From a bacterium (GTDB taxonomy: Bacteria; Blakebacterota; Blakebacteria; Blakebacterales; JAWOFN01): a DNA stretch of 64,000 bases. The position numbers were made by a program, and so were the translations under genes. Position 1 is the first letter of the stretch. Each line of letters starts with the position of its first letter. The notes beneath the pieces were generated by a model. That model was not told where the DNA came from. It was given only the letters and a program-made list of their open reading frames with translations, and did not search any database. Positions 42,215-51,211 of this stretch are shown here, piece by piece. The stretch covers positions 8,834 through 72,833 of the forward strand of contig JAWOFN010000112.1 of NCBI GenBank assembly GCA_046497505.1. The letters are read 5' to 3'.

Positions 42215-43231
42215 TCAGGGATCGATGGAGAGCCGGAACTGGAAGCCCGCCCGGGCGGAGAGACCGGAGGGGGTCTGCTCGAAGGACTTGATGAGGCTGA
42301 AGAACGCCTGTCCGTCGTCCGCCTCCCTCCCGCTGAGGAAGAGGGTGTTCATGATGTTGAACACGTAGGCGCCCAGCACGAAGAGACTCGCTTCCCCCTT
42401 CTTGGCAGCGGCCCTTCGGCGATCCAGCATGGCCGTGGCGGAATGGGCACGGTCCTCCCTGACCTTCTGCTCGTAATACTCCTGCGTGACCTCCTCTCCA
42501 TCCACCAGGAAGACATACTGGAACCTCCCGTCCCGGACCTCCCGGTAGTCCTGGAAGCGGGAGGAGTCGAAGCGGAAGGGGTCCCCGTCCGGGAGCGAGT
42601 TCCGGTAGACGAAACTGCCCACCACCAATCCCGCGGAGACCAGGGCCCACCCGGGGCGGCCCCGACTGAGCTGTCCGGCCCCGGGGAGGATCATGGAATA
42701 GAAGAACGCCGTGTCGCCCGTCACGAAGCGGGAGGGATGACTGAGGGCGGAACCGAGCCTGGGGGCGTCCTCGCGGGCGGCCTCCTCATCCGGGTAGGAG
42801 CGCTTCTCGAGACCGACGACAGCCCCCTCTTCTCTACTGTAGACGATGGAGGAGACCTCCACCCGTCCCCCCGGCTCTCGGGTCATCACCCCCGTGATGA
42901 GGAAGGAACTGCTCCGGGTCGTCAGATACTCCCGGAGGGAACCGGGGCTCCTCAGGGTCTTCCTGAGGCTCCCCAGGTCCTCGGGCCCTCCCCCATCCTC
43001 CTCTTCCATCAGGCGGAGCCAGTTCCCCCTCCTGATGCCGCTGCGGAACGCCGCACTGTATTCCGCCGCAAACGTGCTGTCTGCGGTGGAACTCAGGAAA
43101 GGAAGAAGGGCCACGTTGCGGTCCACACCGGTCTGGGCCAGGGCGGAGGACGTGCCTCCCCCCCCGAGCAGGGAGAGAGCCAGCAGCGCCCCCACCGTAC
43201 ACGCAGGGAATAAGCAGGTCGTTCGATCCAC
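42215..43231 (-). CDS. hypothetical secreted/membrane protein, divergent from the pgsB-led operon
   Basis: The in-frame GTG at 43231 gives a signal peptide (DRTTCLFPACTVGALLALSLLGGGG). The alternative ATG is at 43309. One C-terminal TM segment (ILPGAGQLSRGRPGWALVSAGLVVGSF). No family recognised. Confidence 0.45.
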   Translation of the reverse strand: MDRTTCLFPACTVGALLALSLLGGGGTSSALAQTGVDRNVALLPFLSSTADSTFAAEYSAAFRSGIRRGNWLRLMEEEDGGGPEDLGSLRKTLRSPGSLREYLTTRSSSFLITGVMTREPGGRVEVSSIVYSREEGAVVGLEKRSYPDEEAAREDAPRLGSALSHPSRFVTGDTAFFYSMILPGAGQLSRGRPGWALVSAGLVVGSFVYRNSLPDGDPFRFDSSRFQDYREVRDGRFQYVFLVDGEEVTQEYYEQKVREDRAHSATAMLDRRRAAAKKGEASLFVLGAYVFNIMNTLFLSGREADDGQAFFSLIKSFEQTPSGLSARAGFQFRLSIDP

Positions 43232-43493
43232 GGGGCTCCCGAGCAGATGATCGGATGTGTCCTCCCCGGAGTATACAGGCCAGGTCGTACTTCCTTCACC
43301 TGTCCGCATGATGCCCCACGCCTTCCGGTGCGTGACCCACCCGTTCCGGGCGGAACCTCTGAGGAGGAGCGGGGGGCCCTGGTGGATACGGAACGGGGAA
43401 GCTTCCCTGTAGAGGGTACCGTCCCGCCGCATCAGGCCGTAGTATGTACCCTGGATCGAATCCGACTCCGACCGCCAGCCCCGGGAGCACCCG

Positions 43494-44651
43494 GTGTCCA
43501 CGCTGCTCGTCACATTGGCCCTCTTCCTGGCCTGGCTCCTCCGGGAACGGCTGCTCCTGGACCGCGCACGAGACCGGGTCCCGAACCGGATCACGGTGAC
43601 CGGGACCCGGGGGAAGAGCGGGTGCGCCCGCCTGCTGGGTGCCATGCTCCGGGCGGAGGGCCGACGGGTGGTGGTGAAGACCACCGGTTCGGAGGCCACC
43701 CTGGTACTGCCCGACGGAACGACCGAGACGATCCCACGAAGGGGGGTACCCAGCATCATGGAGCAGCGCGACCTCATCCGGCGCTGTGCCCGGCTCGGAG
43801 CGGACACCCTGGTGGCGGAGATCATGAGCATCCACCCGGAGAACCACCGCATGGAAGGACTCCGGATCCTCCGGCCCCAGACGGTCCTCTTCACCAACGC
43901 GAGGCCGGACCACGTGGATGCCATGGGGTGGGACGAGAGGGCGGTCTGTGAGGTACTCCTCTCCTCGGTGCCCCCCGGGACCCATCTCCTCCTCCCCCCC
44001 TCCCCCCCGCCCCTCCTGGAGGAACATATCCGCGGAGGGCGGTGGGAAGCGATGAAGGTGGCCGAGGGGGAGGCGACGATGCCTCCTGCGGCGGGCGTCT
44101 TCCATGACGATCTCTGTCTGGCAGCGGCAGCGGCACGGAGAGCAGGGGTCGGGGACCGGGCGGTGAGGGAGGGTTTGGAAGACTTCCGGGAGGATGCCGG
44201 GGGGCTGAGGGTCTGGCGGCTGGAACCCCCGGGGATCCGGGGACCGGTCTACGCCGTGAGCGCCTTCGCGGCCAACGACCCCCTCTCCACCGTCGACGTC
44301 CTCGACCACGTCCGGGGCCGGCTGCCCTCGCCCCTGCCCTGCACCGGCCTGCTGAGCCTGCGGGCCGACCGCGCCGACCGCACACTCCACTGGATCAGGT
44401 ATCTGAAGGAGCAGGGGTTGTCCGGGGTACACCCCCTTTTCGCCCTCGGCGTACAGGCGGGCATCGCATCTCGGAGGACACCCGGCATCCGTGCCCTGAA
44501 ATGGACCGGCCCCGGCAGCGTGACCCGGGAGGTCTGCGCGGCGGCGGGGACGGACGGCCCGCAGATCCTCTTCGGGTTCGGCAACTTCAAGGGGCACGGG
44601 GAGGAACTGGCGGCATGGTGGGCCGGGGAGGGCAGCCGCGTTGAGCTATGA
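43494..44651 (+). CDS. pgsB: poly-gamma-glutamate synthetase PgsB/CapB (Mur-ligase-like amide ligase)
   Basis: VTGTRGKSG P-loop. Blocks VVKTTGSEATLVL, NARPDHVDAMGWDE, SAFAANDPLST and SLRADRADRT align block-for-block with Bacillus PgsB. GTG start. Confidence 0.8.
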   Translation: MSTLLVTLALFLAWLLRERLLLDRARDRVPNRITVTGTRGKSGCARLLGAMLRAEGRRVVVKTTGSEATLVLPDGTTETIPRRGVPSIMEQRDLIRRCARLGADTLVAEIMSIHPENHRMEGLRILRPQTVLFTNARPDHVDAMGWDERAVCEVLLSSVPPGTHLLLPPSPPPLLEEHIRGGRWEAMKVAEGEATMPPAAGVFHDDLCLAAAAARRAGVGDRAVREGLEDFREDAGGLRVWRLEPPGIRGPVYAVSAFAANDPLSTVDVLDHVRGRLPSPLPCTGLLSLRADRADRTLHWIRYLKEQGLSGVHPLFALGVQAGIASRRTPGIRALKWTGPGSVTREVCAAAGTDGPQILFGFGNFKGHGEELAAWWAGEGSRVEL

Positions 44652-49518: not shown

Positions 49519-49567
49519 GCCCTTCTAAACCCCGCACCGCGCAGGGTGCATGCAAAAGGAGACCGAC

Positions 49568-51211
49568 GTGAGATGGAACCAATGGAGACATGAACCGGGC
49601 CGGCTGACACTGCTGCTCGTCTTCCTCCTCGCCCTGCCCCTCGCGGCATGGGGTCAGGGGCACGACATCACCAAGTCCGCCGGCCCCGGCCTGGAGAGCT
49701 GCACCAGCATCATGGTGGGACGGCTGGCCAGCACCGACGGTTCGGTGATGACCGCCCACTCCTGTGACGGCAACTACCGCACCTGGCTGCGGATGGAGCC
49801 CGCCGCGGACCACCGCGAGGGCACCATGAAGCAGATCCACTGGGGGACCCTCCATACCGAGTCCCCCTGGGACACCGGGGAGCTCATCCTGAAGGGCGAG
49901 ATCCCCGAGGCGGCGCACACCTATGCCTACATGAACGTGGCCTATCCCTGCATGAACGAGCACCAGCTCGCCATCGGGGAGACCACCATCGGCGGGCGCC
50001 GGGAGCTGCGGAACGACGAGGGCCTCTTCCTCATCGAGGACCTGCAGCGTATCGCCCTCGAACGCACCACGACCGCACGGGAGGCGATCCGGCTCATCGG
50101 CGAGCTGGTGGCGGAATACGGGTACGGAGACTGGGGGGAGTGTCTCACCTTCGCCGACCCGAAGGAGGTCTGGCACTTCGAGATCTTCGGCGCCGGACCC
50201 TTCGAGAAGGGGGCGGTCTGGGCCGCGGTGCGGATCCCCGACGGCCACGTGGGGGTGAGTGCCAACATCCCCCGGATCAGCACCCTCGACCTGGACGACC
50301 CCGATCGCTACATGGCCAGCGAGAACGTTTATTCGGTGGCCGAGGAGATGGGATGGTACGACCCCTCCGACGGCGAACCCTTCCGCATGTGGGAGGCGTA
50401 CAGCGGCCGCCGCCCCTTCAGCGACCGCGAGTTCTTCGTCCTCAGCACCATGGCTCCCAGCCTGGACCTGGAGTGGGAGGTGGAAGAGCTCCCCTTCTCG
50501 GTGGAGCCGGACGAGAAGGTCTCGGTGGAGGATGTGTTCGCCTACTACCGGAGCACCTATGAGGGTCATGAGTTCGACCCGATGAAGAACCTCAAGGTGG
50601 AGCAGCGACGGCGGGGACAGGAAGCAGGGGAGATGGTCACCACCACCGCAGTGAGTCCCTGGATGGGCAGGGACACCCGGCAGCTCCTCAACACCCTGGC
50701 ACCCGGTTCGGTGGAGTCGCACCGGACCATCGCCGTGGCCCGCTGCTCTTACAGCCAGGTCAACCAGTGTCGGGACTGGCTGCCTGACGGCATCGGCGGC
50801 ATCGCCTGGTTCAGCTTCGACAACCCGGCCCAGAGCCCGCGGATCCCCATTTTCGCCGGCGTGCTCGAGCTCCCCGACTCCTTCGAGGTGTGTGCCCAGG
50901 AGCGCTACCGCACCGACTCGGCGGCCTGGTGGTTCCGGCGCACCAACCGGCTGGCCATGATCAAGTACGGCACGACCCGCCAGACCATGGAGGAGGCCGT
51001 CATGGCCTTCCAGGACCGGGCCCTCACCGAGCTGCCCATGGTGGAGCAGACCGCATTGGAGTTGTACCGGAACGCCCAGGACGGGGAGGACGCTCCCGAT
51101 GCCTACCGGCAGTACCTCACCCGCTACACCAACGACTTCGCACGGGCGACCATGGCTCACTGGTGGGAGCTGGGCGACAAGTTCTGGGCCCTCTTCGCCC
51201 GGGGTTTCTGA
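49568..51211 (+). CDS. C69 family dipeptidase (Ntn-hydrolase, N-terminal Cys), secreted
   Basis: GTG at 49568 has an AAAAGGAGA RBS. The track start is ATG 49550. Signal peptide (LTLLLVFLLALPLAAWG). CTSIMVGRLASTDGSVMTAHSCDGNY matches the C69 N-terminal nucleophile region. Confidence 0.65.
   Translation: MRWNQWRHEPGRLTLLLVFLLALPLAAWGQGHDITKSAGPGLESCTSIMVGRLASTDGSVMTAHSCDGNYRTWLRMEPAADHREGTMKQIHWGTLHTESPWDTGELILKGEIPEAAHTYAYMNVAYPCMNEHQLAIGETTIGGRRELRNDEGLFLIEDLQRIALERTTTAREAIRLIGELVAEYGYGDWGECLTFADPKEVWHFEIFGAGPFEKGAVWAAVRIPDGHVGVSANIPRISTLDLDDPDRYMASENVYSVAEEMGWYDPSDGEPFRMWEAYSGRRPFSDREFFVLSTMAPSLDLEWEVEELPFSVEPDEKVSVEDVFAYYRSTYEGHEFDPMKNLKVEQRRRGQEAGEMVTTTAVSPWMGRDTRQLLNTLAPGSVESHRTIAVARCSYSQVNQCRDWLPDGIGGIAWFSFDNPAQSPRIPIFAGVLELPDSFEVCAQERYRTDSAAWWFRRTNRLAMIKYGTTRQTMEEAVMAFQDRALTELPMVEQTALELYRNAQDGEDAPDAYRQYLTRYTNDFARATMAHWWELGDKFWALFARGF

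Follow-up and report, generated by a model that had tools for sequence, protein, structure and literature searches.

A pgsBCW operon with a conserved candidate turnover and transport module in a Blakebacterota contig

Introduction

The biology and biotechnology of poly-gamma-glutamate (PGA) rest almost wholly on the PgsBCA system of Bacillus, and the Gram-negative PgsBCW systems have barely been studied. Secretion of PGA by Fusobacterium nucleatum was reportedly described by Candela et al. in 2009, along with Gram-negative three-gene clusters whose third gene is unrelated to capA. The present study concerns an operon with genes of the pgsB, pgsC and pgsW type that occurs in a stretch of 64,000 nucleotides, referred to as the window, of a Blakebacterota genome (assembly GCA_046497505.1, contig JAWOFN010000112.1, positions 8,834 to 72,833 of the forward strand). 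Comparison with related loci indicated that in most cases PgsBCW is accompanied by the same four genes, which are better conserved than the synthase, and by a variable peptidase, all of which are present in this operon.

In Bacillus subtilis, PgsBC makes (L-rich) PGA without PgsA (PMC6029982), and for PgsA, removal of the chain from the catalytic site and its transfer to the outside have been proposed (PMC4928254). A depolymerase gene is often found in or next to PGA operons, such as pgdS just downstream of the pgs operon, and PgdS was proposed to release chains from the synthase; secreted gamma-glutamyltranspeptidase (GGT) degrades PGA from one end, and PghP is a carboxypeptidase-A-like zinc PGA hydrolase that cuts gamma-glutamyl bonds (PMC4497714). 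Fusobacterium nucleatum is cited as a Gram-negative PGA producer (PMC4497714; PMC3815933).

No description of the companion module was found in the literature that was searched, nor any mention of TIGR04332, DUF6305 or pgsW in the present sense, and nothing relevant was found there on electron cryo-microscopy of PgsBCA or on PGA in Aminicenantes or Gemmatimonadetes. The novel part of the system is the widely conserved putative turnover and transport module and not the synthase core, which is known.

A companion module conserved with pgsBCW

The operon region comprises eight genes of the + strand arranged in one tight series, 43494-51211, according to the list of open reading frames (ORFs) of the window. 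Together with the region that precedes them, they are:

43310..43493, no strand: intergenic region between pgsB and the divergent gene, presumably serving as promoter and 5' untranslated region of the operon
43494-44651, +: PgsB-like ATP-dependent amide ligase, 385 amino acids (TIGR04012 as best model, Mur_ligase_M)
44641-45078, +: PgsC, integral-membrane synthase subunit, 145 amino acids (TIGR04011, PF14102)
45080-46174, +: PgsW, 364 amino acids (TIGR04332), in the position held by PgsA/CapA in Bacillus
46257-46862, +: DUF6305 protein, 201 amino acids (PF19823, signal peptide)
46877-48169, +: multi-pass permease, 430 amino acids (ion-transporter superfamily, sub-threshold matches)
48180-48344, +: membrane peptide of 54 amino acids, predicted helical hairpin, with a conserved C-terminal ...PFLLRLFRLK motif
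48355-49518, +: membrane-anchored AstE/AspA-type zinc hydrolase, 387 amino acids (PF24827)
49550-51211, +: secreted C69 dipeptidase (N-terminal nucleophile, Ntn, with Cys as nucleophile), 553 amino acids (PF03577, signal peptide)

The module consists of DUF6305, the permease, a two-helix peptide of 51-54 amino acids and the membrane-anchored AstE/AspA-type hydrolase. Its distribution was followed by mapping the window proteins onto two sets of loci. The pgsW family was confirmed in at least 274 species-representative genomes, and 80 loci seeded on PgsW were taken from these 274; the second set comprised 80 loci from metagenomes, found with DUF6305 as seed. A locus was considered well-flanked if it had 8 kb or more on each side. 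Among the well-flanked PgsW-seeded loci, pgsB and pgsC adjoin pgsW in all 36, and DUF6305, the permease and the AstE-like hydrolase lie within 10 kb of pgsBCW in 27; pgsBCW is in turn present in 10 of the 12 well-flanked DUF6305-seeded loci.

Three gene orders were observed. The module follows directly downstream on the same strand in Gemmatimonadota, KSB1, Ignavibacteria, a Bacteroidota metagenome-assembled genome (MAG) and this window, and it is convergent, 1-3 kb from pgsBCW, in Aminicenantes (19 of the 27 module-bearing loci). It lies upstream, in the order ggt - DUF6305 - permease - 47/48-aa peptide - hydrolase - pgsB - pgsC - pgsW, in cultured Cetobacterium somerae and two Fusobacterium isolates, and isolates of these two genera carry the same pgsBCW and module gene set. 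Since the linkage is kept through three gene orders and at least six named phyla, the evidence for a functional connection between the module and pgsBCW is strong, and chance juxtaposition is excluded by the conservation data. An earlier note on this DNA, made from the sequence alone, had assigned the downstream genes to the pgs system on account of their tight spacing; this is borne out, beyond spacing, by conservation across phyla. Homology and context present the four module proteins as dedicated companions of PgsBCW with soluble domains that all face the periplasm. Measured against the window proteins, the permease and the hydrolase have a median identity of 70%, DUF6305 of 58%, PgsW of 45% and PgsB of 37%.

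Several loci depart from these arrangements. Tandem copies of the module flank pgsW in L089 (1-8673), and also in L087 and L055; the order in L089 is C69 - DUF6305' - permease' - micro' - AstE' - pgsW - DUF6305 - permease; AstE paralogs of this type are 45-46% identical to the window hydrolase. Locus L028 (1-11279, 'bacterium SM23_31') has the order NhaC-type antiporter - pgsW - C69 - DUF6305 - permease - micro - AstE-like - C69, with two C69 genes. In Aminicenantes-type loci such as L120 (10668-12749, - strand; 12913-13524, + strand), two further genes lie between DUF6305 and the permease; they code for an M28 peptidase of 576-694 amino acids with a PA domain and for a conserved two-helix membrane protein of 195-203 amino acids; the latter has no assigned family and is present in 36 loci. 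In Fusobacterium sp. PH5-44 (L169, 6747-7400) an extra gene stands between the AstE-like hydrolase and pgsB, and its product of 217 amino acids gives weak DUF2119 and AstE_AspA_cat matches.

The synthase core

The first gene of the operon probably codes for a divergent PgsB. Its product is best matched by TIGR04012 (E 1.2e-49, 169.1 bits, residues 4-373 to model positions 3-377 of 380), followed by MurE at 1.5e-10 and cyanophycin synthetase near 1e-3; it also has a Mur_ligase_M match of 40.2 bits, the P-loop GTRGKSG in its translation and an N-terminal membrane helix. The earlier note had considered that the enzyme might really be of the Mur-ligase or cyanophycin type, which was not found, the PgsB model being ahead by about 40 orders of magnitude. 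The note had also described pgsB and pgsC as unmistakable, block-for-block matches; this wording was too strong for PgsB, which is 26% identical to CapB of B. anthracis (E 1.6e-32) and whose full-length match stays below the TIGR04012 equivalog cutoff (169 vs 222.7 bits). The PGAP name for the PgsB-like protein (MFO7769171.1) is 'Mur ligase family protein' only. PgsC exceeds the cutoffs of both TIGR04011 (99.7 bits, cutoff 96.45) and PF14102 (116.6 bits, cutoff 27) and is 41% identical to CapC of B. anthracis. In the hidden Markov model (HMM) searches of the three leading genes that the note had proposed, TIGR04011 and TIGR04332 were matched above cutoff, and TIGR04012 was the best model at a sub-cutoff score. 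PgsB, as a cytoplasmic amide ligase of the Mur-ligase type, and PgsC, as the membrane subunit, are assigned by homology as the predicted catalytic pair.

A homolog of PgsA/CapA was not found by tblastn in the window and 163 related loci (~2.0 Mb); there was also no Pfam match to CapA, and hhalign gave a probability of 0.1%, in agreement with the earlier view of a PgsB/PgsC-type system without PgsA. The same note had called the locus non-canonical for its unrelated third gene; that gene belongs to the curated TIGR04332 family, with the RefSeq symbol pgsW. Judged by its protein families, the core is the already known, curated Gram-negative pgsB-pgsC-pgsW cluster, which appears non-canonical only relative to Bacillus.

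PgsW, the third subunit

PgsW matches NCBIfam TIGR04332, 'poly-gamma-glutamate system protein', with 290.6 bits (cutoff 100; residues 12-318 to model positions 3-307 of 307), and the identical protein in GenBank carries the same name; the symbol pgsW is used by RefSeq for this family in Cetobacterium somerae. The protein had been presented in the earlier note as unrelated to CapA, which holds; by this match it is no orphan. At 50% identity the family forms 1,502 clusters, of which 819 have E <= 1e-30. Among 20 homologs 56 positions are invariant, and these include the motifs DPNxTGLIG, AKRT, GxSGSFP, SLGAS, NxGG, PVIHLL and WDPxPLP.

The AlphaFold model of PgsW (pLDDT 88.5) begins with a membrane helix and a long helix, continues with an alpha/beta domain and ends in a second membrane helix. 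The charge distribution suggests that both ends are cytoplasmic and that the alpha/beta domain is periplasmic, the same topology class as PgsA. Sequence and profile searches against the PDB gave no meaningful match, and the fold has no precedent there. By homology, PgsW is assigned to the place of Bacillus PgsA.

Natural in-frame PgsC::PgsW fusions occur in two independent cluster representatives, P0270 and P0295 (441 and 424 amino acids), at loci L165 (5032-6306) and L166 (4552-5826), where the cassettes are otherwise identical; they are present in independent assemblies (ENA, JGI, Logan and an NCBI Bacteroidota MAG). These fusions are good evidence for a physical partnership between PgsC and PgsW. 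Longer members of the family were also detected (P0297, P0356, P0359, P0375 and P0382). P0297, with 618 amino acids, contains two PgsW copies, the first partial and the second complete; the others (546-693 amino acids) have C-terminal extensions after the second membrane helix with no Pfam match, those of P0356 and P0382 being proline/alanine-rich.

The zinc hydrolase and the accessory peptidases

The hydrolase matches PF24827 (AstE_AspA_cat) with 29.9 bits (gathering cutoff 25), and a profile of 16 hydrolase sequences matches the AstE/AspA-family structures 2qj8, 6twl and 3cdx. The aligned motifs GGxH83xxE86, N177-L-N-R180-x-x-P-G-R185 and D-L-H214 correspond to the zinc and carboxylate sites; H83/E86, N177/R180 and H214 align to 2qj8 and 6twl and are invariant in the 16 homologs. 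An invariant E280 (LLFEAPEP) lies ~66 residues past H214, the spacing expected of the general base, and the HMM alignments end earlier. Mean column identity is 73%, and residues 118-172 form an invariant insert of ~55 residues that is unique to the clade. The N-terminal signal-anchor helix places the enzyme facing the periplasm. A PghP-type family match was not found for the protein of 387 amino acids, as the Pfam scan at E <= 0.01 gave AstE_AspA_cat only. The membrane-anchored AstE/AspA-type enzyme is considered a candidate gamma-glutamyl hydrolase; an AstE-like enzyme would suit gamma-PGA because every amide nitrogen of the polymer sits on a residue whose alpha-carboxylate is free, the group that the N-R motif of this enzyme class binds.

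The C69 protein matches PF03577 with 205 bits from residue 50 (profile position 1), and its nucleophile Cys51 (..S-C51-T-S..) opens the domain after the signal peptide; the score against the NCBIfam equivalog NF033678 (188.7 bits) is below the cutoff of 250. The accessory-peptidase slot is variable. C69 occupies it in 11 of the 36 well-flanked loci, GGT heads the operon in all three Fusobacteriaceae loci and adjoins the cassette in L016, L107 and L116, and M28 + PA, M14 and M20 peptidases recur in Aminicenantes-type loci, with M24 and M16 also found in related neighbourhoods. Elsewhere in the window (17099-18793, - strand), ~25 kb upstream of the operon, a full-length GGT is encoded (PF01019, 514 bits), which is 26% identical to CapD.

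The permease, the micro-protein and DUF6305

No permease reached a Pfam gathering score. Over 18 homologs the weak matches were to DctM (7), CitMHS (4), Na_H_antiporter of the NhaC type (2) and DcuC (1); the best sub-threshold DctM match (PF06808) had E 4.5e-5 and 22.9 bits vs 23.8 for gathering, and the window protein itself had no DctM match. Sequence and profile searches against the PDB found no relative. Mean column identity across phyla is 80%, and the GenBank name is 'C4-dicarboxylate ABC transporter'. These similarities point to a place in the ion-transporter superfamily (DctM/CitMHS/NhaC/DcuC-like), in which the protein is uncatalogued; its closest relatives transport organic anions.

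An ORF ending in ...P(F/I/L)xLR(L/F)xx(K/R) lies between the permease and the hydrolase in 79 of the 79 loci where both are adjacent. An alignment of 44 distinct homologs was built. The GTG start of the window peptide of 54 amino acids is preceded by a GGAGG site, and the peptide is called by PGAP as MFO7769176.1. Its identification by sequence as an analog of CapE/PgsE was rejected, with no blastp match even at E <= 10.

DUF6305 scores 156 bits (PF19823 only) and has a signal peptide and ~170 mature residues. Its predicted model is a single flavodoxin-like alpha/beta domain (pLDDT 84) with generic structural neighbours only. The protein may be a periplasmic ligand-binding partner of the permease. 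Three other proposals were discarded: a catalytic Cys pair, as two near-invariant cysteines are missing from the Cetobacterium homolog; paralogy with a PgsW subdomain (hhalign probability 0.2%); and an extra Aminicenantes ORF of 203 amino acids as a DUF6305 paralog.

Proposed function and alternatives

The operon is read as a Gram-negative PGA synthase with a dedicated periplasmic turnover and uptake module, which would make, trim and reclaim the polymer; we hold this to be somewhat better than an even chance. The view of the earlier note, that the cassette polymerises, trims and recycles, stays the best one at that strength. Its claim that the system is self-contained for export was not sustained, since no outer-membrane component is encoded and the permease belongs to a superfamily of small-solute carriers and not of polymer exporters. 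In the proposed mechanism, the bitopic PgsW would dock on PgsC and handle the emerging chain via its periplasmic domain, the role proposed for PgsA. The AstE/AspA-type zinc hydrolase would cut gamma-glutamyl bonds of the polymer, and the small products would be finished by another peptidase, which varies between lineages: C69 in this operon, GGT in Fusobacteriaceae and M28/M14 in Aminicenantes. The permease, its partner of 54 amino acids and DUF6305 would import glutamate or short gamma-glutamyl peptides, and the three may act as a tripartite, TRAP-like, binding-protein-assisted carrier. The net effect would be an anionic extracytoplasmic polymer that is made, controlled in length or amount, and reclaimed as glutamate. 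Turnover of PGA is favoured because GGT, a genuine gamma-glutamyl enzyme, heads the Fusobacteriaceae operons, and uptake because the permease resembles only the organic-anion carriers DctM, CitMHS and DcuC. The GGT association fits gamma-glutamyl chains of any length and does not discriminate between products.

Several observations weigh against this reading. The sub-cutoff score of PgsB and its low identity to CapB mean that the product of the enzyme could differ from classical PGA. The PF24827 match of the hydrolase covers only profile positions 55-153 of 192, and its catalytic Glu is assigned by position only. Classical solute-binding proteins are all far larger than DUF6305, whose fold match is generic. 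In nine of the 36 well-flanked pgsBCW loci no module lies within 10 kb, and L089, L087, L055 and L028 have pgsW with the module and no pgsBC on the contig. The permease and the hydrolase are conserved far above PgsB, which is not obviously expected of a mere salvage accessory, and an outer-membrane export component is missing from the cassette. The functions of the locus proteins and their close relatives, including the substrate and direction of the permease, are predictions.

An unlikely alternative is that the periplasmic hydrolases free glutamate from external peptides, N-acyl or gamma-glutamyl compounds and that the permease feeds it to the synthase, with no recycling of the cell's own polymer. 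The abundance of general peptidases in the neighbourhoods (M16, M24, M20, M28, M14 and C69), the organic-anion type of the carrier and the dependence of PGA production on external glutamate in many Bacillus strains (PMC4928254) are in its favour, but it leaves unexplained both the near-exclusive linkage of DUF6305 to pgsW (10/12) and the persistence of pgsW with the module where the contig is without pgsBC, and the recurring GGT points to gamma-glutamyl substrates. The latter contigs, L087 and L055, together with L089, where pgsW stands between two paralogous modules, and L028, where it accompanies a module, would be better accounted for if the module were obligatory machinery, an explanation to which we give still less credence. 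The hydrolase would then be a chain-release or length-setting factor, as was proposed for PgdS or CapD, and DUF6305, permease and micro-protein would join PgsW in a complex without which the polymer could not be extruded or a counter-ion or co-substrate not be exchanged. Such a role agrees with the conservation of the permease and hydrolase above the synthase, with the PgsC::PgsW fusions, which make PgsW a physical bridge, and with the proposal of PgdS as a chain-releasing factor (PMC4497714); it conflicts with the nine module-free loci, with the established transport of small solutes by carriers of the ion-transporter superfamily and with the finding that PgsBC alone is enough for PGA synthesis in B. 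subtilis (PMC6029982).

The least probable of these explanations, in our judgement a distinctly remote one, is a different product: short gamma-glutamyl oligomers acting as a periplasmic polyanion or osmolyte, a heteropolymer, or a gamma-glutamylated envelope acceptor, processed by the module. The divergence of PgsB, the all-periplasmic accessory proteins in a cassette without outer-membrane exporter and the PDB-unprecedented fold of PgsW would fit, but PgsC is above its equivalog cutoff, and this gene set is also present in Fusobacteriaceae, to which the one Gram-negative species with reported PGA secretion belongs. The make, trim and reclaim reading may also be extended, tentatively and with rather little confidence, to a new class of tripartite, receptor-assisted gamma-glutamyl-peptide transporter formed by DUF6305, the permease and the hairpin of 51-54 amino acids. 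It would be coupled to a new periplasmic clade of AstE/AspA gamma-glutamyl hydrolases, with the new-fold PgsW linking both to PgsBC, and PGA in diderms would be a managed, reclaimable store of glutamate in the periplasm or outside the cell rather than just a capsule.

Gene boundaries and expression signals

The junction of pgsB and pgsC is an overlap of 11 nucleotides and that of pgsC and pgsW is TGAtGTG; the gaps after pgsW are, in order, 82, 14, 10, 10 and 31 nucleotides. GGAGG-like ribosome-binding sites precede the starts of the third to seventh genes (5 starts). The first seven proteins, that of 54 amino acids included, are present in GenBank under the consecutive accessions MFO7769171-177 with identical boundaries, so these gene calls are independent of this analysis; the positions that the earlier note had given for the eight genes were all upheld. 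GenBank already gives every operon gene a generic name. The membrane and secreted placements of the operon proteins are consistent with hydropathy.

A terminator scan found no intrinsic terminators on the + strand inside the operon, which is weak evidence; no sigma-70 consensus promoter was found upstream of pgsB, and no Rfam families (riboswitch or small RNA) in the operon region. The lower edge of the divergent intergenic region shifts with the choice between ATG 43309 and GTG 43231 as start of the divergent gene. The G+C content of the window is ~66%, so long spurious ORFs occur on every strand. Antisense ORFs of 450-660 amino acids lie over real genes at 45347-46849 (-), 46850-48205 (-) and 49250-51229 (-); they were rejected as genes and regarded as high-G+C artefacts, their clustering across loci arising only from sense-gene conservation.

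Flanking genes

The divergent gene at 42215-43309 (-) codes, with the start uncertainty mentioned, for ~364 amino acids with a signal-like helix and a weak sub-threshold DUF5683 match. The gene pointed out in the earlier note does exist, but it is no part of the system, as no homolog was found in 163 related loci (0/163). The downstream gene at 51420-52232 (+), for a predicted lipoprotein with no family match, likewise has no homolog in the related loci, and both were rejected as system members. Further downstream are a UPF0047 (YjbQ-like) gene (~52300-52726, +) and a NuoN-type Proton_antipo_M subunit (53002-54489, -). Just upstream of the locus, the tandem paralogs at 37543-39840 (+) and 39933-42200 (+) each fuse a Na+/H+ exchanger (CPA-type) membrane domain, a TrkA_N domain and a PTS EIIA-2 (EIIA-Ntr-like) domain; a separate protein with PTS_EIIA_2 and a zinc ribbon is encoded close to the cassette in 28 related loci.

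Significance

The operon offers a candidate new gamma-glutamyl hydrolase of potential use in PGA size control, and a candidate transporter of glutamate or gamma-glutamyl peptides with two uncharacterised partners, DUF6305 and the micro-protein. Cultured hosts that carry the gene set are Cetobacterium somerae and Fusobacterium spp. Pfam DUF6305 and a widespread permease family that lacks annotation would gain a function from their context.

Comparison with known systems

The Gram-negative pgsBCW cluster (TIGR04012/04011/04332) is made of these three families in identical order; the junctions overlap likewise, and CapA is absent. Accounts of that cluster reportedly describe three genes, to which the window adds the four-gene module and a peptidase. 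The Bacillus systems PgsBCA(E) and CapBCADE share with the window homologous PgsB (26%) and PgsC (41%) and a bitopic extracytoplasmic third subunit after pgsC, and the Bacillus operons likewise have a small membrane peptide and a depolymerase gene in or beside them (locus L164; PMC4497714). They differ in that the third subunit is CapA, which is unrelated to PgsW, and in that CapE is unrelated to the window micro-protein, which sits with the transporter and not with the synthase. The Bacillus depolymerases are of the NlpC/P60 (PgdS) or GGT (CapD) type, whereas the candidate of the window is of the AstE/AspA type; unlike those of Bacillus, the window operon includes a transporter, and its host is probably diderm.

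PghP provides a precedent for an M14-like zinc site that can cut gamma-glutamyl bonds. PghP, PgdS and GGT are extracytoplasmic like the window hydrolase, and its gene is linked to those of the synthase, as are pgdS and capD. The window enzyme differs from PghP in its match to AstE_AspA_cat only, its invariant insert of ~55 residues and its membrane anchor.

TRAP transporters (DctP-DctQ-DctM) also pair a large ion-transporter-superfamily permease with a secreted protein and a small membrane protein; the permease of the module shows weak DctM similarity, and the Cetobacterium homolog is labelled 'TRAP transporter large permease subunit' in RefSeq. In contrast, no window-type permease reaches the DctM gathering score. 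DctP is a two-lobed binding protein, whereas DUF6305 has a single flavodoxin-like domain and so falls outside the DctP type, and DctQ has ~4 helices as opposed to ~2 in the small partner of 51-54 amino acids.

In the AstE/AspA deacylases (succinylglutamate desuccinylase, aspartoacylase and DoeB), the HxxE...H zinc motif and the N-R carboxylate motif align with those of the window hydrolase. The known members hydrolyse amides of N-acyl-Asp, N-acyl-Glu or N-acyl-diaminobutyrate (DABA) and are cytoplasmic and soluble, whereas the window enzyme, which matches the central part of the model only, is membrane-anchored, faces the periplasm and stands in a PGA context.

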